From an uncultured Planctomycetaceae bacterium (GTDB taxonomy: Bacteria > Planctomycetota > Phycisphaerae > SM23-33), in assembly GCA_964616985.1 (NCBI GenBank), contig CAZTVF010000027.1, positions 1 through 49,616 on the forward strand: DNA of 49,616 bases. Reading direction: 5' to 3'. Under the pieces are notes generated by a model that had not been told where the DNA came from, did no database searches, and saw only the letters and a list, made by a program, of their open reading frames with translations. Both the position numbers and the translations under genes were made by a program. Below are positions 539 to 49,576 of the stretch, one piece after another (positions within the stretch are counted from its first letter, which is position 1; every line of letters starts with the position of its first letter).

Positions 539-3418
539 CTACCGCACGTCGCGATAGGCGTGCGTGGCGACGTCGAAGAATTGGCCCTCGAACGAGCGGA
601 TGAGCGTGGTGTAGACGCGGAGGCGGAGGTCGTTTGGGCCGCGGCGAAGCTCAGCCGCGTCCACCTGCACGAGCCTGGGCGACCAAGGCATTGCGTGCCA
701 GGGCCCGCCGTTGAACGACACCTCGCACGCATCCTCGAACGAGCCCGGCAGGTCCATCTCCACCAGCACCGGCCCTGCGGTTTGGGGCGGCGCGAGTTCG
801 ACCGCCGCGGAATACTCGACGACCCCCGCGTAGTGCGGCAGGCGGTTGGCGCTGTAGTTCTCAAACTCCCCCGCCGTCGGCGGGGCGACCAGCGATGTCC
901 CGGTGAGTTCGACGCCGAAGCCGCCGGCGAGATAGAGCGCGTTGCGCAGGCCGCCGTCCATGCGATCCGTTTCCACCGTCACGGCGATCGTATTGGGCCC
1001 GGGCTGCAGCAGCGGCGTGATGTCCACGCCCACGCTGCCGCGGACGTGCGCGCGGCTGGGGACGAAATCCGCCGCCCCCAATGCCCGCCCGCCATTGATG
1101 CGGATGGACCACTCGCCCACGAGGGTCTCGGGCTCCATCACGAGTTCAACGGCGCCGGCGTAGCGGTTCTCGAATGCGGCCTCGTACAGCACGCACAAGG
1201 TGGGCAGGTTCAGCTGCGGCACGTCGCCGAAGAAGCCCTCCACCCGGGGCGAAATCCGGAACCCGCCCTTGGCCAACTGGTTCACCAGCGGCACGGCCGG
1301 AACCTTCGCCCGCTGCACCGGCGAGTCCTTCGGCAGCGACATCTCCCATTCGTACAGCCGCAGCACGTTGGGCGCCAGCGGCGCCACCCGCATGAGGCCT
1401 GCGACCCCCGCACGGATGGTCGGCGGCGCGATCGCCGCGGCCGAGGCGTCGGCGGCCGACGTCAGCAGCACCGACTCGAACGGCGCGATCGTGCGGGTAT
1501 ATTGGCCGCTCTCGCCAGCCAGTCGCGGCGGCAGTTCGTCATCCAGCGCGATCTCTCGCAGCGGCTCGGGGTGCTCGATCCGCAGCTTCACGCGCCGCCC
1601 GCCCGTGTTCAGCAGCAGCCAGACCGTGCGGTTGCCATCGGTCCTTCGCACGGCTTGAATGTCGTCAAGGCCCGCATCATCGGAGGCGATGGCGATCGCG
1701 GGCGGTGTGCTCCTTGCGATCGCTTCCGCCCAGCCGGCCGCGTCATTGGCAACCGCGTCCTCAATCACCGTCCCGCCGGCCTGCTTAAAGGTCGTCAGCC
1801 ACGCGGCAAGCTCGTCCTCCACAAACCGCATCGGGGGCACAACCACGACCTCGGCGCGAACATCGCGGACGGTGACTGCCCCGGCCTCGATGCTGCCGGC
1901 CTGGAGGATGTCGGTATCGACGACGAGAAAGTCGATTCGCCGCGCGGCCAGCCCCTGCAGGAGCGACTGGTAGAACGTGCAATGGCCGCCGTCGGGGAGG
2001 CCCGACGAAGGGTCCACCACCAGCACGCGCGCGTCGATGCGGGTGCCCTCGAACGCCCGCCCGATCCGCTCGACCCGCCGGGCCAGGTGCGGCCACTGCG
2101 GCCACCAGGGCATCTGGAAGAAGAAGCTCGGCGGCGCGTCGTGCTTGCGGAGGGCGTGCGTGCTGTAGAAGGCCGCGTGCGGCACGAGGTGCTTGACCCC
2201 CAGCAGCAGCAGTCCTTCGGCGATGAGTCGGGCATCCTGCAGCGTGGCCCCCCAGCCCAGGCTGTGGTAGCACTCGCACATGCTGCCGCTCTTGCCGTAG
2301 AAGTACGCCGCCGACGCGGTCGCCCGCGCGTTGCCCCGGGCGATGCCGCCCAGCAGGTCCATCTTCGCGCCGGCCTTGGTGTGGCCGGGCTCGCAGCCGG
2401 GGACGTCCAGGTGCCGAAGCTGCGAGAGGCGATACGACGGCTTCTCGCCGACGTTGGCCACGCGGTGCTCGCGGCACCAGCGGGCGATGGGCTCATCGAA
2501 GCTGCGGGTGAACATCTCGTACTGCACGCGGGACAGGTCGCGCAGCACCTGCAGGTGCCGCGGGTGAGAGGCATCCTGAAGCGCCGGCAATAGCGGCAGC
2601 ACGTCGTAGCCGCACCGCCGCTGGAACTCCGCCGGCACCAGGGCGGACCATGAGGGGCCCGTTTCATCCATGAAGAACGAACGGATGCTTATGCCCATCT
2701 CGGCCCTGAAGTGACGGGCGTACCACTGGTGCGTGAGGGCGATGAACCGCTCCACGGCGGCCGGGTTCATCACGTCGGGGAAGAAGCCCCAGTACTTGTG
2801 ATGCTCCTGCAGCACCTGCACCGACACATAGATGCGGTGCGGCTCGTCAGGCAGGAAAGCCTCCAGCGTCGGCGTTGGGCGGTTGGCGAAGTAACGTTTG
2901 CGATTGTACGAGGTCAGGCCGGTTTCCTGGTACGTTTCGTCGGGCAGCGTCATGCCCACAGAGGATAGAAGATCGATTTGTTGGCCCCATTGGGCATTTC
3001 CCGCAATGTCCAGCGGGCAGGCAACGCAGGCGAGCACCTTTCCGCGAGGCAACGGGAGTACCAGGTGCCGTCCACCCGTCTCATGCCTCGTCTGCACCAG
3101 TTGCGTCGCGGCCAGCTGCGGTTCGCCCAGGGCCACCATCCCGCCGGCGGCGCCGCTGGGGTAGGGGTACTCGTCGCCGATGTGCACGCTGAGGCCCAGC
3201 CGCTTGGCCTCGTCGACGGCTGCGGCGACCAGAAAGAAGTACGCCCCTGAGAGGTAAGGCTGCCGCAGCCCCTGGCGGGGGTGAATGAAGAAGCCCTTGA
3301 AGCCCCCCGCCGCCATCTCGCCCACCTGCCAGCGGATCTCGGCCTCGGTCATGTTACCGTTCCAGAACCACAGCGGGTAGAAGCCCCAGTCCATCGGTGC
3401 GTCGGCATCGGCGGTCAT
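539..3418 (-). CDS. Large glycoside-hydrolase-like protein (959 aa), family unassigned; N-terminal catalytic-type domain plus C-terminal galactose-binding-like beta-sandwich; no signal peptide
   Basis: ATG at 3418 is preceded by AGGAGA. The N-terminus MDWGFYPLWFWNGNMTEAEIRWQVGEMAAGGFKGFFIH is typical of a group of uncharacterised GH-like proteins. The 959-aa ORF looks protein-like in composition. The antisense 677-aa ORF is Arg/Gly/Ala-rich junk. Confidence 0.6.
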   Translation of the reverse strand: MTADADAPMDWGFYPLWFWNGNMTEAEIRWQVGEMAAGGFKGFFIHPRQGLRQPYLSGAYFFLVAAAVDEAKRLGLSVHIGDEYPYPSGAAGGMVALGEPQLAATQLVQTRHETGGRHLVLPLPRGKVLACVACPLDIAGNAQWGQQIDLLSSVGMTLPDETYQETGLTSYNRKRYFANRPTPTLEAFLPDEPHRIYVSVQVLQEHHKYWGFFPDVMNPAAVERFIALTHQWYARHFRAEMGISIRSFFMDETGPSWSALVPAEFQRRCGYDVLPLLPALQDASHPRHLQVLRDLSRVQYEMFTRSFDEPIARWCREHRVANVGEKPSYRLSQLRHLDVPGCEPGHTKAGAKMDLLGGIARGNARATASAAYFYGKSGSMCECYHSLGWGATLQDARLIAEGLLLLGVKHLVPHAAFYSTHALRKHDAPPSFFFQMPWWPQWPHLARRVERIGRAFEGTRIDARVLVVDPSSGLPDGGHCTFYQSLLQGLAARRIDFLVVDTDILQAGSIEAGAVTVRDVRAEVVVVPPMRFVEDELAAWLTTFKQAGGTVIEDAVANDAAGWAEAIARSTPPAIAIASDDAGLDDIQAVRRTDGNRTVWLLLNTGGRRVKLRIEHPEPLREIALDDELPPRLAGESGQYTRTIAPFESVLLTSAADASAAAIAPPTIRAGVAGLMRVAPLAPNVLRLYEWEMSLPKDSPVQRAKVPAVPLVNQLAKGGFRISPRVEGFFGDVPQLNLPTLCVLYEAAFENRYAGAVELVMEPETLVGEWSIRINGGRALGAADFVPSRAHVRGSVGVDITPLLQPGPNTIAVTVETDRMDGGLRNALYLAGGFGVELTGTSLVAPPTAGEFENYSANRLPHYAGVVEYSAAVELAPPQTAGPVLVEMDLPGSFEDACEVSFNGGPWHAMPWSPRLVQVDAAELRRGPNDLRLRVYTTLIRSFEGQFFDVATHAYRDVR

Positions 3419-3464
3419 AGCATCTCCTGTCGGGGTGGCGATTGAGCGGGCCTCTTGGCCGCTG

Positions 3465-5498
3465 CTACCGCGCCACGGTGAGCCTCGCGGCGGCGCCGGC
3501 GTGCTCGTGCTGGGGCAAGGGCACGGTGAGCGAAAGGCTATCCGGCCTCGACAGCTTCACGGTCACGGCCGCAGCCTGCCCCGCCGGGTCCGCCAGCGTC
3601 AGGTCGATCCGCCCCTCCACCGGCCGGTAGAGCACGATGCAGGGGGCATTGACCGCGAGCGACTGGGCGTCGGGGAACTCGACCGCCCCGGCCTCGTAGA
3701 ACACCGCGTGGCCGCGATGCTCCTTCGCGTGCCAGACGGCCTGGACCTGCACATCGTTTCGAGTGATTGTCAGCGGGGAGACATCCACGGCATCGGCCGC
3801 CAGACCCGGGGCGACCACGTAGGCATATTCCGCGTCGCGAGGTCCCGGCCCGTGATCGATCGCCGCCGTGAACACCGCCTGCGACTGCGGCTCGCCGGAG
3901 CCCACGCCGCAATCGCTCCACGCACCGTGCTGGGTCTGCAGGCGCATCTCGCCCTGGCCGCGGAGGATGGCATAGCCCACGCCGTCGTGCGAGAAGGCCG
4001 AGCCGGCCGCCAGCGCGTGCACGCCATCGGCCAGCGGGGCCGATCGGCCTTTGATGAAGACGCTGCCGCGGCGGCGGCATTGGTTGATTGTGGTGCACAC
4101 AGGCACATCGGCTGCAGACGCGATGCCCGCGCCCAGCGCCACCATGCAGCGGTCGAAGAAGAACCACGCCTTCTTCGCCGACAGCGTCATGCGGCTGAAG
4201 TCCATGGCTGCGCAGCCGACCTCGCCATCGCTGGCCCCGCCGGCGAAGGCCCGCTCGCCGCGCCGCACCAGTTCATCCACGTTCATCGGCCTCGGGTGCT
4301 GCTCGACCGTCGCGCCGGGCACGCGTCGCCAGTTCCACACGGAGAAGACGTCGCGATATTCGTCGCCGTCGCGCATCACGAAGCTGCCGCCCTCGGCCAG
4401 GTGGTGGCAGAGGCGGCCCTCGCCGCCGCCGCAGGGGAAGTCGACGTTCTCGAGGCGGTCGCTGGCGACGCGGACGGAGATGCAATAGTCATCGCGGTGG
4501 TGCACCATAAGGTTGCCCGACCAGAAGTGCCGGTTGCCGGACACGAACGACTTGCGCGCGTCTTCGCCCGCAGCCGCGATGGCGGCGAACTCCTCGCGCC
4601 GTGGGTGCTCCACCCTCGCCATCAGATTGGCGGCGCGGAGGAATCGCGAGTTCTCATGGCCAGCGCGGCTGATCTCGCGCCCGATGGCCCCGTACTCGAA
4701 TGTTCGCCCGCGGACCATCCAGCGGCTGCCGTCGAGCAGGAAGCGGGCGAACAGGTCGACCCCGTGCCGCGGCCACGCGTACGCCGTGCCGTCGGCCAGC
4801 CAGATGAAGCGGGCCACGTCGGCGGCGAAGTTCTGGCCGTACCCGCCGGAGTACAGCAGGCGACCGTGCTGGAAGAAACTCATGTCCGGCTGCAGGCCTT
4901 CCTCGGCGGGGCAGACGCGGACCTCGCGGCCGATGAGCTGCATGCCCTGCGAGACGAGGGCCGGGTCGTCGACGAGCAGCCCGTGGGCGACCTCGACGCC
5001 GGCGGTCCAGACGAGGTTGGCGCCCGTGAATCGCAGCACCGGCTGGTGAGACTCAAAGGCGGGCACGGCCCGCGCGATGTAAGAGCGGTCGCATGAGCCA
5101 TGCACCCGCATCAGCACCTCGGCCAGCAGGGCCGGGGCGCCGATCTGCATCCACCACCAGTTGGGGTTCTGCGGCGAGCGGTCGTACCAGAACCGCAAGC
5201 CGCACAGCACGGCCTGGAGCATCTCGTCCGGCCGCGACGCATCGCCCGCCGCCCCACCGCGCCAGGCGCACGCCATCGCCAGCAGGCGTTTGAGGTGATT
5301 GCCGGCCGACCAGTAAATCAGCAGTTGGCAGCCGTAGTCCACGTCGGCCCACGAGCCGTCGGCCCGCATGGAGGCGCGGAAGCCCTCGGCCCCGGCGCCC
5401 ATGGCCGAGACGGCGTTGCCGTTGCTGAAGTGGGCATCGCTGCACCAGCGGTCGCGAATGACCGCCAGCGCCGCCAGGCGTGGATCTGGTTCTGCCAT
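3465..5498 (-). CDS. Polysaccharide lyase family 8 (chondroitin AC/hyaluronate/xanthan-lyase type) protein, 677 aa, no signal peptide
   Basis: The NPNWWWMQIGAP motif matches the PL8 catalytic Asn region (NWW.YEIG.P). The alpha-toroid N-terminal and beta-sheet C-terminal composition is consistent. ATG at 5498 lies 1 nt after the stop of the upstream gene, so the two form an operon. Confidence 0.7.
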   Translation of the reverse strand: MAEPDPRLAALAVIRDRWCSDAHFSNGNAVSAMGAGAEGFRASMRADGSWADVDYGCQLLIYWSAGNHLKRLLAMACAWRGGAAGDASRPDEMLQAVLCGLRFWYDRSPQNPNWWWMQIGAPALLAEVLMRVHGSCDRSYIARAVPAFESHQPVLRFTGANLVWTAGVEVAHGLLVDDPALVSQGMQLIGREVRVCPAEEGLQPDMSFFQHGRLLYSGGYGQNFAADVARFIWLADGTAYAWPRHGVDLFARFLLDGSRWMVRGRTFEYGAIGREISRAGHENSRFLRAANLMARVEHPRREEFAAIAAAGEDARKSFVSGNRHFWSGNLMVHHRDDYCISVRVASDRLENVDFPCGGGEGRLCHHLAEGGSFVMRDGDEYRDVFSVWNWRRVPGATVEQHPRPMNVDELVRRGERAFAGGASDGEVGCAAMDFSRMTLSAKKAWFFFDRCMVALGAGIASAADVPVCTTINQCRRRGSVFIKGRSAPLADGVHALAAGSAFSHDGVGYAILRGQGEMRLQTQHGAWSDCGVGSGEPQSQAVFTAAIDHGPGPRDAEYAYVVAPGLAADAVDVSPLTITRNDVQVQAVWHAKEHRGHAVFYEAGAVEFPDAQSLAVNAPCIVLYRPVEGRIDLTLADPAGQAAAVTVKLSRPDSLSLTVPLPQHEHAGAAARLTVAR

Positions 5499-11811: not shown

Positions 11812-11840
11812 GGGGCGGCGGTCCGTGAAGGCCGCCACCC
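11812..11840. repeat. Half-copy of the REP-like element (…GTGAAGGCCGCCACCC)
   Basis: ggggcggcggtccgtgaaggccgccaccc matches the right arm of the 12607/22327/49509 elements. It sits at the 3' end of thpR. Confidence 0.4.
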
Positions 11841-12606: not shown

Positions 12607-12675
12607 GGGTGGCGGCCTTCCCAGGCCGCCGCCAACAACCACCCGAAAGGCGGCGGCCTGGGAAGGCCGCCACCC
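12607..12675. repeat. REP-like palindromic element: perfect 24-bp inverted repeat GGGTGGCGGCCTTCCCAGGCCGCC / GGCGGCCTGGGAAGGCCGCCACCC with a roughly 20-nt spacer
   Basis: The arms are exact reverse complements of each other. The same element recurs at 22327-22394 and 49509-49576, with partial copies at 368 and 11812. Confidence 0.6.
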
Positions 12676-22326: not shown

Positions 22327-22394
22327 GGGTGGCGGCCTTCCCAGGCCGCCACCAGGAACGCTGTGATGGCGGCGACCCGGGAAGGCCGCCACCC
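22327..22394. repeat. REP-like palindromic element (second full copy), located in the divergent intergenic region between the radical SAM and GT9 genes
   Basis: GGGTGGCGGCCTTCCCAGGCCGCCACC ... GGCGGCGACCCGGGAAGGCCGCCACCC. Confidence 0.55.
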
Positions 22395-33934: not shown

Positions 33935-36544
33935 TCAGGCCATGTTGTGTTTCTTGCGGAGCATCCACTCAGCCGCCAGCAGCACCACGATCATCACCAG
34001 GGCGAGGTTGGTGTCCCAGATGAAGCGAGGCTCGTCGTGGATGCTCACGCCGCGGTCCACGGGAATCTCGCCCAGGCGGCCCAACTGGCCCAGGGTGAGG
34101 AAGTTCTCGGCCGGGTACGCCATCGCCTTCATGGCTGAGGCGTCGGCCTCGGTGCGGACGAACTCGGCCTGCGGGAGATCGATCTCGATCTGCTTGACGA
34201 TGGTGGATTCGTTGGCGTCGCCGTCGCCGGGGGCCGGCAGCAGCTTGAACGAGCCCTTGCGATCGACGGTGAAGTTGGCCTTGAAATGCCCGGGCTTCTC
34301 ATCGCCGACGGCGTTGGCGACGATCTTGCGGTCGAGGAGGTTCGTCGAGGCGTCGATCATCTGCACCTCGTACGACTTTTCCTTGCGCGGCTGGAACTTC
34401 TCGTCATAGGCCTCCACCTCAACGGTGATGGGCTCGCCGACGGAGAAGTTGTTGCCGCCGGTGGTGATGATCACTCGCCGGGCCTGCAGCGTCGCCAGGT
34501 ACCGCACGACGTTGGCCCAGAATCGCCGGTGGTACTGCCCGTCCTTGACGTAGCGCCACCGCCACGTGTCGTCGAAGCCGACGTACAGGACGTTGCCCTT
34601 GCCATAAGGCTGGGCGGCCACCAGGGGCAGGGGCTCGTTCTTGCCGCTCATGCGCCGCAGCGGGTTGGAGCTGACGGCCAGCGTGCGGGCGCCGGGCTTG
34701 CTCTTGTAGACCGGGTGGGCCCAGAACAGCCCGGGGAGGTTCGTCCAGACGTTCTGCGATTCCTCGGCCGTGCCGGCCATGCGCATCACCGGATGGTCCA
34801 TGCCGTACGAGGTCAACCGCAGCGGGTACGCCTCGGGCCGGCCCTCGGACAGGCGGGTGATCTCGTTGATCGCGTTGGGGGCCAGGCTCACCGGCAGCAT
34901 CTCGGCGAAGTCGGCGAATTCCTTCGCGCCTTCGCTGGTCAGCAGCGTGGTCTCGGCGTACTTGTTGCCGGCGATGAGGCACAGGCCACCGTTGTGCTCC
35001 TGCACGAAGGGCTTGAGCAGGTCCTTCACGAAGTGCTGATCGAAGCCCCCGCCCGCCGACGGCGAGGGATCGTACAGGATGATCACGTTGTAGCCGGGCT
35101 TGTTCTCATCGCCCGGCACGCCGATCAGTTCTTCGAGCGACTGCGGCAGCTGGGCCAGCTTCATCCCGTTGGAGGACGCCTGGTTGATGTCCTTGTCGGC
35201 GTTCTGCTGCCAGATGCTCGTGCGGTACAGGTCGGGCTGCTGCAGCAGGAAGTTGCGGAGGTACTGGAATTCCCACCCCGCGTCGCCGCTGACCAGCAGC
35301 ACGCGGATCTTCTCGTCGGCCACCGTCACCTGGGCCAACGAGGAATTGTCGGCGGTGTTCTGCTCGCCCACCAGGGGCTCGATGAGGGCGCGGTATTCGA
35401 AGTCGCCCAGTTCGTCGGGCTCCAGCTGCATCGACACGGCCTGCAGACCCTGGGCCGACTGGTTGGGGTCGCCGGTGGCCTCCAGCGTGGCGGCCTGCGA
35501 AACCACCCGCCCGTCGGCGCTGATGGCTTCCTTCCAGTCGGACTCGCCGATGGCCCGCTTCTGCAGCTTCACCGTCACCGACTCCCCGGCCATGTTGCGG
35601 TGGGCGACCATGGCGGTGAATTCCACGTTGGCGCCGCGGCGGGTTTCGCGCGGGGCCTGCAGGGCGGTCACGGCCACGTTGCGGGGCGGCGTGGACACGC
35701 CCACCGCCACCGAGTACAGCCGCACGCCGCGCTCGGCGACGTAAGCCATCGCGCTGGCGCGGCGGGTCTCGGCGCCCAGCGTGGTGATCTGGCCGTCGCT
35801 CAGGTGAATGATGACGGGGGCCCGCTGGCCTTCCATCAGTTCCATCGCGCTGCGCAGGGCCGAGGGCGGATTTGTCGAATAGCCCGACCGCGTCAGGCCG
35901 CCCAGGGCCTGGCGCACGCGGGCCGACGCCTCGTTGGGGTCGAACACGCCGCCCTCGGGCCGCACCATGTCGATCCGCGCCATCTCGCGGGTGTAGCCCT
36001 GCTGCGACTGGGTGGGCTGGGTCGTCGAATATCGCATGACCACCAGCGGATGGTCGGCGGCGAGTTTCACCAGCGGCCCGTCCTTGGCGGCTAGGGCCTG
36101 CACGATCATCTCGCCGCGGCTGAGGTCGGCCAGCTTCTCGGCCGGCACGTTCAGCATCCTCGCCAGTTCGTCACGCTGGGCGGCGAGGTTCGGCTCGTCA
36201 TACTTGTCTTTGAAGGACATGCTCTGGCTGTCGTCGATCAGCAGCACGACGCTGCTGCTGAGCGTCTTGACGAACCGCAGCACCACCGCCGGCTGGAAGA
36301 TGATGCCGAACACCAGCGCGATAATCAGAATTCGGAGGGTCGCCAGCGTGGCCTTGGCCCGGACGGGCGCCTCGCCCTCGCGCCGGTAGCTGCGGATCGT
36401 CAGCCACACCATGCCCGCCAGCAGCACCACCAGGGCGAAGTTGACGTACTCGTTGTACTCGGCCACGGCACGCAAGCGCCAGTCGCCGTGGGAGAAGATG
36501 TCTTCCACGTCCGAATTCAGCAGCCATTTCCACAAAGCTATCAT
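33935..36544 (-). CDS. Membrane-anchored von Willebrand factor A (vWA/MIDAS) protein, BatB-like, 869 aa
   Basis: An N-terminal TM precedes the MIDAS motif VVLLIDDSQSMSF. ATG at 36544 lies immediately after the TAA of the upstream gene (TAAATG). Confidence 0.7.
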   Translation of the reverse strand: MIALWKWLLNSDVEDIFSHGDWRLRAVAEYNEYVNFALVVLLAGMVWLTIRSYRREGEAPVRAKATLATLRILIIALVFGIIFQPAVVLRFVKTLSSSVVLLIDDSQSMSFKDKYDEPNLAAQRDELARMLNVPAEKLADLSRGEMIVQALAAKDGPLVKLAADHPLVVMRYSTTQPTQSQQGYTREMARIDMVRPEGGVFDPNEASARVRQALGGLTRSGYSTNPPSALRSAMELMEGQRAPVIIHLSDGQITTLGAETRRASAMAYVAERGVRLYSVAVGVSTPPRNVAVTALQAPRETRRGANVEFTAMVAHRNMAGESVTVKLQKRAIGESDWKEAISADGRVVSQAATLEATGDPNQSAQGLQAVSMQLEPDELGDFEYRALIEPLVGEQNTADNSSLAQVTVADEKIRVLLVSGDAGWEFQYLRNFLLQQPDLYRTSIWQQNADKDINQASSNGMKLAQLPQSLEELIGVPGDENKPGYNVIILYDPSPSAGGGFDQHFVKDLLKPFVQEHNGGLCLIAGNKYAETTLLTSEGAKEFADFAEMLPVSLAPNAINEITRLSEGRPEAYPLRLTSYGMDHPVMRMAGTAEESQNVWTNLPGLFWAHPVYKSKPGARTLAVSSNPLRRMSGKNEPLPLVAAQPYGKGNVLYVGFDDTWRWRYVKDGQYHRRFWANVVRYLATLQARRVIITTGGNNFSVGEPITVEVEAYDEKFQPRKEKSYEVQMIDASTNLLDRKIVANAVGDEKPGHFKANFTVDRKGSFKLLPAPGDGDANESTIVKQIEIDLPQAEFVRTEADASAMKAMAYPAENFLTLGQLGRLGEIPVDRGVSIHDEPRFIWDTNLALVMIVVLLAAEWMLRKKHNMA

Positions 36545-38869
36545 TTATTGCACCCGCCGGGAGCGGCTGGGCCCCCGCAAGTCTGTGTAGTGACCGAATC
36601 GCTGACCGAGGAAAATCTCCGCCGCCAGCAGTGCCAACACCGCACCAATGAAGTACATCCAATAGTCTTTGCGCGGGGCCGTGCGCGATTCCTCCGACGC
36701 CCCCGCCGTCGCCAGCATAGACCGATACTCGTAGTCCTCCGTGCCGAACGCCGCCGTGATGCCCGCCTGCGCGCCCGGCGCCAGGTCGCCCTCGGCCGGA
36801 TCGAGATTCCGGGCGAACAGCACCTGCGACTCATCCCCGCGCGGCTGGTGCAGCCGCAGCGTATAGACGCCCGCCGACCGCGGCCGCTCGTACCGCAGGG
36901 CGCGGCCCTCGGCCGCCCGCTCCAAGGGCACTTCCTCTTCCTTGGGGAACTTGGGCGTGATCATCGACGTGGTGGCGTCGGCCCATTCCTTCGCCGGCGT
37001 GTAGACGATGGGCTGATCGACCAGGGCGGTTCGCGGGCGGTCGCCGCGGCAGAGCTGCGTCACCAGGCCCATCATCGTGGTGGCGTACGTGCCGACGGGG
37101 TCGCTGGGCCAGTCGCACCAGCGGGCGCTGCCGGAGGAATAGAACATGACTACCTCGCCCTTGCCGAACGAACGCGTCGCGATGGCGGGCGAGTTGCCTG
37201 CGTCGGCAAAGCGGGCGGCCACGTGCGGCGGCCCCGCGTCGCCCGCGGCCAGGGCGGTCGTCTCGGCCGCGGCGGTGAACACCCAGAACCGCACCAGGCC
37301 GGTGAATGCGCCGCCCTCGCCCTGGAACTTCTCCAGGAAGCGGTCGGGGCCGATCGACTTGGGGTTCAGGCGGAAATACTCGCCCGAGGGATCGGCCTTG
37401 CCTTGCGGCGAGCCGATTCGGAACGGCATCAGGCCCGAGCCGGCCGACCACATGTGGTCGTTGTAGAACCGCAGGTCCATGTGGCTGCCGCTGAAGATGG
37501 CCAGGCCGCCGCCGCTGCGGACGAACCGCTCCAACGCCGCCAGCTGCGGGTACGCCGTGTGACGCTCATTCGCGTCGGCCGGACGCGTCGTCACCGCCGT
37601 GTCCTGCGGGAAGGCCGCCACGTTCATCAGCACCACCACGTCGTAGTCTTCGAAGTTGACCGACGCCAGCGCGTCCTCGGAAATCACGTCGGGCCGGCAG
37701 CCGTACGAGCCGCTGCGGCGAGGGTCCAGCGCGCGGGTGAAGAAGAACGATTCGCTCTCGGTCGGGTCGGCGGCGTCCAACTGCCCGTCGACCACCAGCA
37801 CCCGCATGTGCTCGCGGACTTCGAAGGCCGCGAATGCCGTGTTGTCGGCCGGAAGCTCATCCTCGCTCAGCGTGGCCGTGATCACCGCGGGCCCGGCGAA
37901 CGTGCAAGTGATTCGGCATTCGACGGTCTCGGCCTTGCCCGGATCAATCTCCTTGATCGTCAGCATCGGCAGCGAAACCTCTCGCTGGCCTTCCTTGGTG
38001 TTCATGCGGGCGGCCATGCGGATCTCGACGTCGGAGGCGAGGGTCGTGCCGTTGTTGCGGACGGTGATTTCCACCCGTATCGGGTCCTTCGCCAGCACCA
38101 TGCGGTCCAGCAGCTTGATCTCCTGCAGCGTGAGGTTGTTCTTCGGCGCTCGGCCGTAGTCCAGTGCGGTCAGCTCGACGCCGTCCTTCTTCAGGGCGGC
38201 GATCTGCTGGCGGATGGCGGCCATCTGGTCGGCCGAGGAAAGATCCACGCGGCGGAAGTCGCTGGCGATCACCAGCCGCTTGGGGCCCTGCACGTCCTGG
38301 AACTTCTGGGCGGCGGCGGCCAGGCTGTCGGCGAGGTTCATCCGCCCGCTGGCGGGCTCAAGGGTCCTGAGCTGCCCGGCGAGGGAGTTGGAGTCGGAGG
38401 CGAAATCGCGGCGGGCGTAGGCCCAACCCTCGCCGTCGAGGCGGCTGGAAAGCAGCACGGACATCTGCTGCGTCCCCGGGATGCGTGCGGCCTGCTGGGC
38501 CAGGTCGCCGGCGGCCGTGCTCAAGGCCGAGGAGGTGCCCACCTTTTGCCCCATCGAGGCGCTGTCGTCGAGGACGAAGACGGAGGTCATCGTCCCGCTG
38601 CCGGAGGTGGGCCCGACCGCCTGACCGGAGCAGCCGACGAAGCGTCCCAGGGCCATGCCCAGCAGGAGGATCACCATGCAGCGGATGGCCAGGAGGATCA
38701 GTTCCTCCAGGCGTAGTCGCCGGCGGTTCTTCCGCAGGGAGTCCAGGAGGAACTTCATCGCGGCCCAGTCGCGCACCTTGAACCGCCTGCGGTTGAGCAG
38801 GTGGATCAAGATCGGCACACTCACCGCCGCCAGTCCTGTCCAGAATATGATCGGATGTAAAAAGGGCAT
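36545..38869 (-). CDS. BatA-like protein: 'aerotolerance regulator N-terminal' double-TM domain plus vWA/MIDAS domain, about 774 aa
   Basis: MPFLHPIIFWTGLAAVSVPILIHLLNRRRFKVRDWAAMKFLLDSLRKNRRRLRLEELILL is the BatA_N signature. The MIDAS motif is SVFVLDDSASMGQ. ATG at 38869 is preceded by GAGGA. Confidence 0.7.
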   Translation of the reverse strand: MPFLHPIIFWTGLAAVSVPILIHLLNRRRFKVRDWAAMKFLLDSLRKNRRRLRLEELILLAIRCMVILLLGMALGRFVGCSGQAVGPTSGSGTMTSVFVLDDSASMGQKVGTSSALSTAAGDLAQQAARIPGTQQMSVLLSSRLDGEGWAYARRDFASDSNSLAGQLRTLEPASGRMNLADSLAAAAQKFQDVQGPKRLVIASDFRRVDLSSADQMAAIRQQIAALKKDGVELTALDYGRAPKNNLTLQEIKLLDRMVLAKDPIRVEITVRNNGTTLASDVEIRMAARMNTKEGQREVSLPMLTIKEIDPGKAETVECRITCTFAGPAVITATLSEDELPADNTAFAAFEVREHMRVLVVDGQLDAADPTESESFFFTRALDPRRSGSYGCRPDVISEDALASVNFEDYDVVVLMNVAAFPQDTAVTTRPADANERHTAYPQLAALERFVRSGGGLAIFSGSHMDLRFYNDHMWSAGSGLMPFRIGSPQGKADPSGEYFRLNPKSIGPDRFLEKFQGEGGAFTGLVRFWVFTAAAETTALAAGDAGPPHVAARFADAGNSPAIATRSFGKGEVVMFYSSGSARWCDWPSDPVGTYATTMMGLVTQLCRGDRPRTALVDQPIVYTPAKEWADATTSMITPKFPKEEEVPLERAAEGRALRYERPRSAGVYTLRLHQPRGDESQVLFARNLDPAEGDLAPGAQAGITAAFGTEDYEYRSMLATAGASEESRTAPRKDYWMYFIGAVLALLAAEIFLGQRFGHYTDLRGPSRSRRVQ

Positions 38870-38934
38870 TACGTCCTCATTCGGCGTTCTCGCGGCCACG
38901 GAGAGCACGGAGAAACGCGGAGAAAAACATGAGA

Positions 38935-39194
38935 CTAAAGAATCACTCGCTGCAGCCCGTCCACAAGTTTGTCCATGTTGAAATTCATCACCAGCGCCAC
39001 CTTTGCGCCAGCGGTTTTCAGGGTGCTGATCACCTGCACCAAGTCTCTAGGCCTCAGTGAATCGCCAAGGCCCTGTGCACTTTGATCGCAGCCCCGATGA
39101 TCCTCTGAGTCAGTTCCCAGTGCGGGTGGCTGTTCTCACGGCAATCCGCCGCCAGAACCTCCGCTCCCGCCTGCTGTAGATAACTCTTCGACAT
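38935..39194 (-). pseudogene. Decayed GxxExxY-family (TIGR04256-like) gene: N-terminal and C-terminal thirds retained, central core deleted and frameshifted
   Basis: One frame reads MSKSYLQQ...HWELTQRIIGAAIKVHRALAIH*. The +1 frame continues ...LRPRDLVQVISTLKTAGAKVALVMNFNMDKLVDGLQRVIL*. These match the conserved IIGAAIEVHR.LG start and the ...ILTYLK..G.RLGLLINFN..LKDGIKR end of GxxExxY proteins. About 60 central residues, including the eponymous motif, are missing. Confidence 0.6.
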
Positions 39195-39360
39195 CGTCCT
39201 GCTTTCCGTCTTCGCTTCTTCTCTCTGAGTTCTCTGAGCCTCTGTGGTCAGCTTCTTCTTCTTCTTCTTCTTTTGCTTATTCTTCTGCAGCTGTTGCTTT
39301 TGCTTCTTCTCTCCGCTTTCTCCGTGCTCTCCGTGGCCTTCCCGTGCTTTTGTGGTCAGC
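39195..39360. repeat. Low-complexity polypyrimidine/polypurine island containing a (CTT)7/(GAA)7 microsatellite and TGTGGTCAGC direct repeats; AT-richer than surroundings
   Basis: It contains cttcttcttcttcttcttttgcttattcttctgcagctgttgcttttgcttcttctc. tgtggtcagc occurs at 39244-39253 and 39351-39360. It lies between the DUF58 stop and the GxxExxY remnant. Confidence 0.6.
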
Positions 39361-40287
39361 CTATTTCCGTGCGCTGGCCTTGCGGAGGGCGGCGGCGCGG
39401 GCGGCGAGGAAGGAGAGCAACGCGGCGTCGAGGTGGTCGGCGGTGGAGACCAGCTTGTAGTCGATCCTGCCGGCGATGCAGCGGCGATTGACGTCGCGGC
39501 AGAAGTCATCCACGGCCTTGAGGTAGCCTTCGCGAAGAGCGCGGGGCTCGATGATGACCCGCCCCGCCTGTTCCAGGCCGCGGAACATCGTGTTGCCCTG
39601 GAACGGGAACGTCAGTTCGTCCTCGTCCATGATGTGCAGCACCATCACCTCGTGGTCGTAGTGGCGGAAGTGCTGCAGGCCCTTGATCAGGCCCTCGATG
39701 TCCGTGAACAGGTCGCTGATCAGGCACACCAGGCCGCGGCGGCTGATCTTCTCGGCCAGGGAATGGCAGATCGGCTCCAGCGAGGTCTTGGCCCGGGGCG
39801 TCTGAAGGTCCAGGGCGTGCACCATCGTCTTGATCTGGTTGGGATTCGCCGAGGCCGGCAGGTACGCCTTCAGTTCCTCGTCGAAGACGGCCAGGCCGAC
39901 GGCGTCCTGCTGCCTCAGCAGCAGCATGGACAGCGAGGCCGCCACCGCGCAGGCGTAGTGGTACTTGGTCATGGCGTCGCGGCCGTCGCGGCGATAGAGC
40001 ATGGACTCGCTCGCGTCGACGATGAACGTCGCCTTGAGGTTGGTCTCCTGCTCGTACTGCTTGATGTAGTAACGGTCGGTCTTGGCCTGCACCTTCCAGT
40101 CGAGGTGCTTGAGATCGTCACCGGGCACGTACTCGCGGTGCGTGGCGAATTCGATCGAGAACCCGTGGAAGGGGCTGCGGTGCAGGCCGGAGATGAAGCC
40201 TTCGACCACCTGCCTGGCCAGGAGGTCCAGGCGGGTGATCTTCGACAGCACCCGCGGGTCGAGATACTTCTGTAATTCGTTACTCAT
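39361..40287 (-). CDS. DUF58-domain protein (degenerate vWA-fold, MoxR partner), 308 aa
   Basis: YVPGDDLKHLDWKVQAKTDRYYIKQYEQETNLKATFIVDASESMLY is the DUF58 hallmark. ATG at 40287 is used, with an in-frame TAA 15 nt upstream. Confidence 0.8.
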   Translation of the reverse strand: MSNELQKYLDPRVLSKITRLDLLARQVVEGFISGLHRSPFHGFSIEFATHREYVPGDDLKHLDWKVQAKTDRYYIKQYEQETNLKATFIVDASESMLYRRDGRDAMTKYHYACAVAASLSMLLLRQQDAVGLAVFDEELKAYLPASANPNQIKTMVHALDLQTPRAKTSLEPICHSLAEKISRRGLVCLISDLFTDIEGLIKGLQHFRHYDHEVMVLHIMDEDELTFPFQGNTMFRGLEQAGRVIIEPRALREGYLKAVDDFCRDVNRRCIAGRIDYKLVSTADHLDAALLSFLAARAAALRKASARK

Positions 40288-40326: not shown

Positions 40327-40463
40327 TGGTCGGCCGCTCGGTCGTCTGTGGCGCGCCCCGGGGGCCCGCCGGCCATGGACCGCGCGGCGGCCTGTGCCGG
40401 CGCCGCGACCCATGCGTGTGGGCAGGCGGCGGCCCGGCAAGGCCGCCGCCCGCACGTGCTGCC

Positions 40464-41519
<1,056 letters not shown>

Positions 41520-49508: not shown

Positions 49509-49576
49509 GGGGTGGCGGCCTTCCCAGGCCGCCACCACAGCCGTCTGCAGGTGGCCGCCTCGGAAGGCCGCCACCC
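49509..49576. repeat. REP-like palindromic element (third full copy), immediately 3' of the last gene
   Basis: GGGGTGGCGGCCTTCCCAGGCCGCCACC ... GTGGCCGCCTCGGAAGGCCGCCACCC. Confidence 0.55.

Follow-up and report, generated by a model that had tools for sequence, protein, structure and literature searches.

The stretch of DNA analysed here (hereafter the window; 49,616 nt, GenBank contig CAZTVF010000027.1 of an uncultured Planctomycetaceae bacterium) carries on its minus strand a stress operon in which a MoxR-like ATPase gene (41519..40464) is followed by a DUF58 gene, a gene for a BatA-like, von Willebrand factor A (vWA)-type membrane protein of 775 residues, and a gene for a large membrane protein (36544..33935). 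We found that the gap between the DUF58 and BatA-like genes holds the remains of a nuclease gene of the GxxExxY family (TIGR04256; PF13366), bracketed by inverted arms of short tandem repeats as a degenerate cassette of ~465 bp (Table 1). The original prediction, made from the sequence alone, had placed a decayed GxxExxY gene inside this MoxR-DUF58-BatA operon, and profile searches, tblastn, DNA alignment and a structure model of an orthologue all agree with it. The remnant lies where it had been located (38935-39194), although the feature as a whole reaches further, to about 38894-39358, and neither its cassette nature nor the 22-nt inverted repeat that flanks it had been noticed. The gap had also been taken to be 450 nt long. 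Since all orthologues of the BatA-like protein begin with MPF(I/L/V)HP (MPFLHP in the window), its start is the ATG at 38869 and the gap measures 491 nt. With GTG 38908 as its start, the mechanical open reading frame (ORF) of this gene would run into the 3' arm; the alignment of orthologues moves the start to ATG 38869.

Two pieces of the nuclease gene survive, in different reading frames. The first reads MSKSYLQQAGAEVLAADCRENSHPHWELTQRIIGAAIKVHRALAIH up to its stop codon and aligns with a subfamily-specific N-terminal extension and with the helix ELTExIIGCAIxVHReL; the second reads LVQVISTLKTAGAKVALVMNFNMDKLVDGLQRVIL up to its stop codon and corresponds to the C-terminal block. With the intact GxxExxY protein of a relative (L009; loci are given by such labels throughout) as tblastn query, both blocks were matched: residues 2-22 aligned with 39128..39066 (67% identity, E = 4e-4) and residues 89-123 with 39042..38938 in a different frame (46% identity, E = 8e-6), with residues 23-88 replaced by 23 nt. 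A nucleotide alignment with six syntenic orthologues defined the loss as a single clean gap of ~175 nt, equal to 66 residues; a missing central part had been foreseen, at the slightly smaller size of about 60 residues. An uninterrupted ORF of ~125-145 codons is not present, only fragments of 46 and 35 codons. The C-terminal piece alone gave weak matches to TIGR04256 and PF13366 (E = 0.012), and the joined fragments scored 28.1 bits against TIGR04256 (E = 2e-6; below the cutoff of 35) and 27.9 bits against PF13366 (above the gathering score of 22), each time over two matched stretches. The family descent of the remnant is further borne out by 13 syntenic copies, mostly intact, and by a DNA alignment that spans both flanks. 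By tblastn, this remnant is the only GxxExxY copy within the window.

The deleted residues hold both the GxxExxY motif (G-Y-V-E-x-I-Y in orthologues) and the catalytic residues D and ExK (HRADLIV and VELK of orthologues), which are absent from the remnant. With the motif and every catalytic residue deleted and the frame shifted, the nuclease is dead, and none can be made from the window copy. A fold search with the structure model of an intact orthologue identified a PD-(D/E)XK fold, with Cas4 as the nearest solved fold and with Dna2, RecB-type DNA nucleases and archaeal Holliday-junction resolvases also among the matches; a sequence search of the Protein Data Bank gave only a marginal match (E = 0.038).

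Table 1. Features of the DUF58-BatA gap and its neighbours (positions in the window)
Feature	Position	Strand	Basis or remark
DUF58 gene, upstream neighbour	39361..40287	(-)	TAG stop 39363-39361; ORF list
Whole degenerate GxxExxY cassette, ~465 bp	38894..39358	(-)	Alignment with syntenic orthologues
Outer 5' arm GGCCACGGAGAGCACGGAGAAA, tandem 9-mers	39317..39338	(-)	Imperfect extension to about 39304
(GAA)n-rich spacer, purine-rich microsatellite	39252..39286	(-)	Tandem Repeats Finder: period 3, 11.7 copies
Inner second 5'-arm copy GCTGACCACAGAGGCTCAGAGAACTCAGAGAG, ancestral CACAGAG type	39221..39252	(-)	No partner in window
N-terminal fragment ORF, 46 codons + stop	39054..39194	(-)	Homologous block 39066-39128
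Deletion junction	39043..39065	(-)	~175 nt gone, frameshift; boundaries of tblastn matches, alignment gap columns 325-499
C-terminal fragment, 35 codons + stop, different frame	38935..39042	(-)	TIGR04256 / PF13366 profile positions 79-117
3' arm TTTTCTCCGCGTTTCTCCGTGCTCTCCGTGGCC	38894..38926	(-)	Perfect part 38894-38915; starts 8 nt past remnant stop
BatA-like / vWA membrane protein gene, downstream neighbour	36545..38869	(-)	ATG 38869 with GAGGA upstream

Read along the operon strand, the cassette begins with TGACCACA, 3 nt past the DUF58 stop codon, and continues through the outer 5' arm, a purine-rich (GAA)n spacer, an inner copy of the 5' arm and the broken ORF until the 3' arm closes it; from there, 24 nt containing GAGGA lead to the BatA ATG. 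The outer arms form a perfect inverted repeat of 22 nt (38894-38915 / 39317-39338; 0 such matches in 100 shuffles) that lengthens imperfectly to ~32 bp and is built of tandem 9-mers (CACGGAGAG / CACGGAGAA / AGCGGAGAG). In an RNA fold of the 511-nt region 38860-39370 the outer arms pair (free energy, dG, -197 kcal/mol; z = -6.6 versus shuffles), with a minimum-free-energy stem of 22 perfect nt, or of 32 bp with one bulge; the arms probably still form a long stem. The inner 5'-arm copy TGACCACAGAGGCTCAGAGAACTCAGAGAG repeats the outer 5' module in direct orientation (79-80% identity, repeats D2 and D3). Spacers like that of the window (GAAGAAGCAGAAAC) occur in orthologues L087, L088 and L091. On the plus strand the window spacer (39252-39286) reads (CTT)n, and similar slippage-prone purine tracts are present in the spacers of L084 and L087-L091. 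A reading of the cassette as an integron attC site was dropped because the anatomy does not fit.

Relatives of the locus were first found via DUF58, and the DNA of the closest protein homologues was then fetched from metagenomes. At least 13 related contigs have a GxxExxY gene at exactly this place between DUF58 and BatA (L009, L082-L092 and L094), and most of these genes are intact; the gap measures 14-145 nt in L003-L008, L010 and L011, which were found via DUF58. The ORF of L009 has no internal stops and lies between CACAGAGGCCCAGAG-type arms. The closest homologues in a large protein database form a 141-residue subfamily, whose N-terminal extension aligns with MSKS...HPHWELTQ of the window. 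In most cases the syntenic cassettes start with (T)GACCACAGAG 0-17 nt after the DUF58 stop codon and end with CTCTGTGG(T/C) 5-35 nt ahead of the BatA start.

The insertion had been described as old, which these copies bear out: mostly intact in the same gap of related contigs, they show that it predates this genome. GxxExxY identity follows BatA identity across the 13 syntenic loci (Mantel r = 0.78, P = 2e-4, with part of the signal coming from a few close pairs), and among the intact syntenic copies the proportion of nonsynonymous differences (pN) is 0.17-0.31 versus a saturated synonymous proportion (pS) of 0.6-0.9. As pN is low while synonymous sites are saturated, the intact copies are real genes under purifying selection that have long been at the site. 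In a neighbour-joining tree of DUF58, carriers and non-carriers are interleaved and carrier L094 is basal, which favours one old gain followed by repeated loss; the tree has no support values, and this, together with the share of close pairs in the Mantel signal, is a weak point of the proposed history. Since the relatives carry same-gap, co-diverging and selected copies, the window catches an ancestral resident in the course of being lost, not a private insertion, and since they also show other inactivations, it records one stage of a recurrent loss. What lies in the window is therefore almost certainly a dead, vertically inherited GxxExxY cassette, and we conclude with high confidence that the ancestor of this Phycisphaerae-like clade already had the cassette at the junction and that several lineages later lost it. 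Folding of the short DUF58-BatA gaps of cassette-free orthologues, examined for empty hairpin scars, gave mostly non-significant z-scores; among these gaps, that of L007 contains a 3'-arm-like CCTCTGCGGCTCTGTGGTCAGC, and those of L067 and L077 fold well.

Several related loci show changes of their own. The GxxExxY copies of L087 (182-607) and L095 (800-1210) contain an in-frame stop (QLPEGF*EICG and YELK*QGL, respectively), and in L009 (6937-7010) no start codon (ATG, GTG or TTG) is found upstream of the conserved N-terminal block. In L093, in a stretch bounded by genes for an ABC ATPase and an ABC-2 permease, an intact GxxExxY cassette is directly followed by a second cassette with its own arms (3341-3610), whose ORF keeps the last ~13 codons (KLVDGIRRVVLTKQ), an independent internal deletion in which the arms were retained. 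In L094 (1819-2740), a near-perfect inverted repeat of 75-90 nt with opposite polarity, its pyrimidine-rich arm upstream, encloses the GxxExxY gene, and several further CACAGAG arrays lie outside this nested repeat, which suggests a nested insertion or an inversion.

Arms of this kind accompany the family well beyond the window. Across 73 testable GxxExxY loci we scored the inverted repeat that links the region just upstream of the gene to the region just downstream, with 144 random 400-nt positions on the same contigs as controls; the score was at least 14 at 46 of the 73 loci and at 1 of the 144 control positions (Mann-Whitney P = 4e-21). The arms are always tandem 7-10-mers, and their unit varies by lineage (CACAGAG(G), CAGGAAG, CGCAGATGAA, ACGGAGAT or CAGGATT). 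Within the syntenic set, the complementarity of an arm to its own partner averaged 19.4, versus 13.8 with the partners of other loci (permutation P = 5e-5). The 3' arm of the window (CTCCGTG units) pairs only with the outer 5' arm of the window, and the inner 5' arm is complementary to the CTCTGAG/CTCTGTG 3' arms of L082 and L089 (score 22). Units of the 3' arm and of one of the two tandem 5' arms have shifted in parallel from CACAGAG to CACGGAG, and these arms are still complementary at 22 of 22 positions. There are good grounds to conclude that arm complementarity was maintained through this change, by selection or conversion, even though the ORF is dead. Very likely the arms are a maintained part of the cassette and not debris; it must be set against this that their perfect identity could stem from a recent inverted duplication or conversion, not from selection. 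In contigs of lower G+C content, the 5' arm usually follows the end of a same-strand upstream gene at a distance of 1-43 nt, a suggestive pattern; the longest-ORF heuristic used for co-orientation is unreliable at high G+C content and mis-called DUF58 in L082.

The arms also leave a trace in annotation. Gene callers run ORFs through them, as in proteins P0001, P0038 and P0047 and in the window ORF 39054..39509, and create artefactual N-termini (such as MTAEAQRRRE, DHRDTEGTEE and LTTEAQRTQREE) that are translated CACAGAG arrays. A text search for such N-termini could be a way to locate these cassettes, and the tandem-repeat arms explain many spurious ORFs near these genes (...TEAQRTQRE..., ...SVLSVSLW...).

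From these observations a mechanism can be proposed. The cassette carried a small PD-(D/E)XK (Cas4/RecB-like) nuclease gene in operon orientation between the DUF58 stop codon and the BatA ribosome-binding region and, as an element with no promoter of its own, would be transcribed along with the operon. Pairing of the arms into a 22-32-bp stem may then loop out the ~400-nt remnant and bring the DUF58 stop codon near the BatA start. The likeliest analogy would be the 23S rRNA intervening sequence (IVS), a hairpin-bracketed ORF insert that the host may tolerate or process with RNase III in RNA. We are fairly confident of the identification, the history and the cassette architecture taken together, the RNA step excepted. 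A role for the arms as a stem within the operon RNA, whether or not RNase III takes part, can be put forward only tentatively, and our confidence in any molecular role for them is low.

Several results weigh against arms that work in RNA alone. Transition mismatches inside the arms comprise 45 G.T, the form that is a G.U wobble in sense RNA, versus 39 A.C (P = 0.59); no strand asymmetry appears with the flanks included (153 versus 154), and the arms fold with equal stability in sense and antisense (dG, P = 0.15). The parity of mismatches does not support long-term selection for a sense-RNA helix, and DNA pairing or conversion between the arms fits it equally well. Furthermore, rRNA context is lacking: Rfam gave no meaningful match in 38000-40000 at E <= 10 and no gathering-threshold match in 40 other GxxExxY loci, none of which sits in an rRNA gene. 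Both the co-transcription of the cassette and its processing are steps that we infer.

Because the arm mismatches show no G.U excess, sense and antisense folds are equal and rRNA context is lacking, a role at the level of DNA is a serious rival, one that we consider possible but do not favour. Here the arms would be terminal inverted repeats, or cruciform or hairpin sites, for cassette mobility or recombination, and the enzyme may be the PD-(D/E)XK nuclease itself, in the way that repetitive extragenic palindromic (REP) sequences flank genes for REP-associated tyrosine transposases (RAYTs). Alternatively, intramolecular gene conversion would keep the arms identical, and the window copy would be a non-autonomous derivative like a miniature inverted-repeat transposable element (MITE). 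The near-equal mismatch counts are what double-stranded DNA symmetry leads one to expect, the nuclease fold is nearest to Cas4, Dna2 and RecB-type enzymes with Holliday-junction resolvases among its matches, and the concerted shift of the units in both arms (CACAGAG to CACGGAG), the occurrence of the same arms around unrelated cargo and gene-less cores, and the nested and opposite-polarity arm arrays of L094 and L084 point in the same direction. On the other side, the cassette has kept its position while synonymous sites diverged to saturation, and it diverges together with the neighbouring genes; no direct repeat stands beside the arms as a target-site duplication, nor does one emerge when the filled L009 is compared with the empty L010; the CACGGAG arm is found at no other place in the 49.6-kb window; and the arms are very different among orthologues. 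As they diverge while the proteins stay 55-88% identical, sequence-specific recognition of the arms by the nuclease is hard to reconcile with the data.

Were the remnant no ancestral resident, a mobile GxxExxY element would have entered this operon recently and independently and then decayed. The junction does appear to be repeatedly hittable, as it holds other small genes in genomes of the Planctomycetes-Verrucomicrobia-Chlamydiae (PVC) group (L069, L078, L052, L002 and L042), and presence and absence are patchy among close relatives. Set against this, the nearest homologues of the remnant, its N-terminal extension included, are the copies in the same gap, their distances co-vary with those of BatA, and the inner 5' arm and spacer can be aligned with those of the orthologues; we regard a recent insertion as improbable.

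It has a very low probability, in our view, that the remnant has taken on a new role, be it as a 46-codon micro-protein or as a structured RNA that tunes BatA translation or operon stoichiometry, with the deletion being adaptive. The N-terminal ORF keeps its ATG with AGGA 5 nt upstream, the arms are perfect despite the broken ORF, and the region folds far better than its shuffles. However, other lineages break the ORF differently or delete the cassette, which looks like neutral loss, and a protein search with the joined fragments as query, limited by its word index, returned no homologue of the 46-residue product. The region has no Rfam match, and the suggestion that the dead copy might now provide an internal promoter or terminator found no backing, as a consensus scan of the operon strand gave neither a sigma-70-like promoter nor a terminator-like site, with the reservation that the consensus may not fit planctomycete promoters.

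Finally, metagenome assemblies can collapse repeats, but an intact gene broken by a sequencing or assembly artefact is scarcely credible, given that 175 nt of unique coding sequence are missing, which is no homopolymer slip, that related loci show other independent inactivations, and that the Logan assembly of SRR21799889, which may share reads with the window assembly, is identical base for base over 531 nt across the whole gap, making a simple sequencing error unlikely.

The preferred reading, a vertically inherited cassette whose arms outlast its gene, gains context from other cargo in the same bracket. When every fetched locus was searched without bias for inverted repeats separated by 200-1100 nt, a gene for a 23S rRNA-intervening sequence protein (PF05635) was found inside tandem-repeat arms in L150 (1197-1647, 60.6 bits). 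A further PF05635 gene lies in L052, a Spartobacteria metagenome-assembled genome (6887-7318, 55.3 bits), directly after DUF58 on the opposite strand, and is enclosed by 36-nt arms of tandem TTTTCGA/TTTTTGA units at a junction equivalent to that of the window remnant. Tandem-repeat arms also surround a MazE/PIN pair in L056 and, in L012, L015 and L043, ~200-nt cores in which no gene is evident. In other PVC genomes the DUF58-BatA gap is occupied by a Phd/YefM-ParE pair (L069 1566-2197 and L078 6874-7508) or by small predicted membrane or zinc-ribbon proteins (L002 6928-7537 and L042 6892-7301), and small accessory genes have repeatedly settled at this junction. We raise, as a speculative possibility, that GxxExxY genes, S23p genes and some toxin-antitoxin pairs of PVC bacteria share one vehicle: a promoter-less cassette with co-evolving inverted arrays of lineage-specific tandem 7-10-mers, lodged right after host stop codons in operon junctions or in rRNA, whose arms would be selected after the death of the cargo, for example as a site for RNase III or other processing through which the host transcript would put up with the insert. 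If so, the window would be a natural specimen with dead cargo and living arms.

The pseudogene itself is ordinary, and the interest lies in the architecture of the cassette. In the literature searched, GxxExxY is named in three papers and PF13366 in two, one of them the only one to use the name PDDEXK_3, and we found in them no description of flanking arms or of operon-junction residence, which does not in itself prove novelty; the features of note are the shared tandem-repeat inverted arms, the interchangeable cargo, the co-evolution of the arms and their persistence after cargo death. A single junction displays a whole life cycle, with 13 relatives mostly intact and selected, different inactivations in 4, a deletion of the core here and complete loss in ~8. 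These findings may offer a comparative handle on what the widespread, multi-copy GxxExxY and S23p/IVS-protein genes are, and on why hairpin-bracketed intervening sequences persist.

Among the surroundings of the cassette, the DUF58 gene has orthologues at 65-79% identity, and PF01882 is annotated on an identical protein in Logan contig L001. Unrelated to the cassette, a REP-like palindromic repeat (GGGTGGCGGCCTTCCCAGGCCGCC), paired with its own inverse 12-15 nt away, has 8 matches overall in the window versus 0 expected. It forms three full palindromes (12607-12675, 22327-22394 and 49510-49576) and two degenerate half-sites (11817-11840 and 40428-40451), and one half-site lies in the remnant's own operon, within the 176 nt that separate the MoxR and DUF58 genes.

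Four known systems invite comparison. The first is the GxxExxY family itself (TIGR04256; PF13366, PDDEXK_3): the N-terminal helix ELTxxIIGAAIxVHRxL matches the profiles and the intact orthologues, the C-terminal block follows QxxSTLKxxGxKxGLxxNFxxxKLxDGxxRV, and the orthologue model has the PD-(D/E)XK fold. The window locus is a pseudogene and not a member protein; it derives from a GxxExxY gene but lacks the motif, the catalytic residues and the intact ORF that define the family. With MITEs the cassette shares small size, terminal inverted repeats and a deleted internal gene, but it differs in having no target-site duplication, no further copies in the window, no transposase family and a long-stable position. 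REP/REPIN-RAYT systems (REPINs being paired, inverted REPs) likewise place a nuclease-type gene between inverted short-repeat hairpins and have gene-less intergenic derivatives. RAYTs, however, are relatives of HUH/Y1 (IS200/IS605-like) transposases, whereas the cargo here is PD-(D/E)XK; and REPs are dispersed in many copies per genome, whereas the CACGGAG arm is unique in the window and arm sequence is not conserved between orthologous cassettes.

The closest likeness is to the IVSs of 23S rRNA. That of Coxiella burnetii measures 428-444 nt, has a 28-bp terminal stem and, upstream of its S23p ORF, tandem heptamers (GACAGAT) and an AG-rich stretch; the ORF is in reductive evolution, and excision is by RNase III (PMC4990558). 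The window cassette and its relatives correspond in length (~430-465 nt), in terminal inverted repeats forming a 22-32-bp stem that encloses the insert, in having tandem 7-9-nt repeats and AG-rich sequence ahead of a small ORF, in an ORF that shrinks while the stem persists, in vertical inheritance, and in the PF05635 genes that L150 and L052 carry within the same type of arm. They differ in that the host is a protein-coding operon instead of helix 25 or 45 of 23S rRNA, that the cargo in the window is a PF13366 PD-(D/E)XK nuclease instead of a PF05635 four-helix bundle, and that arm mismatches show no G.U bias. If the arms were processed in mRNA, IVS-type elements would be no peculiarity of rRNA but a general ride for small selfish genes inside host transcripts. 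Although it lacks the rRNA location and the cargo that define those elements, the cassette is IVS-like in architecture.

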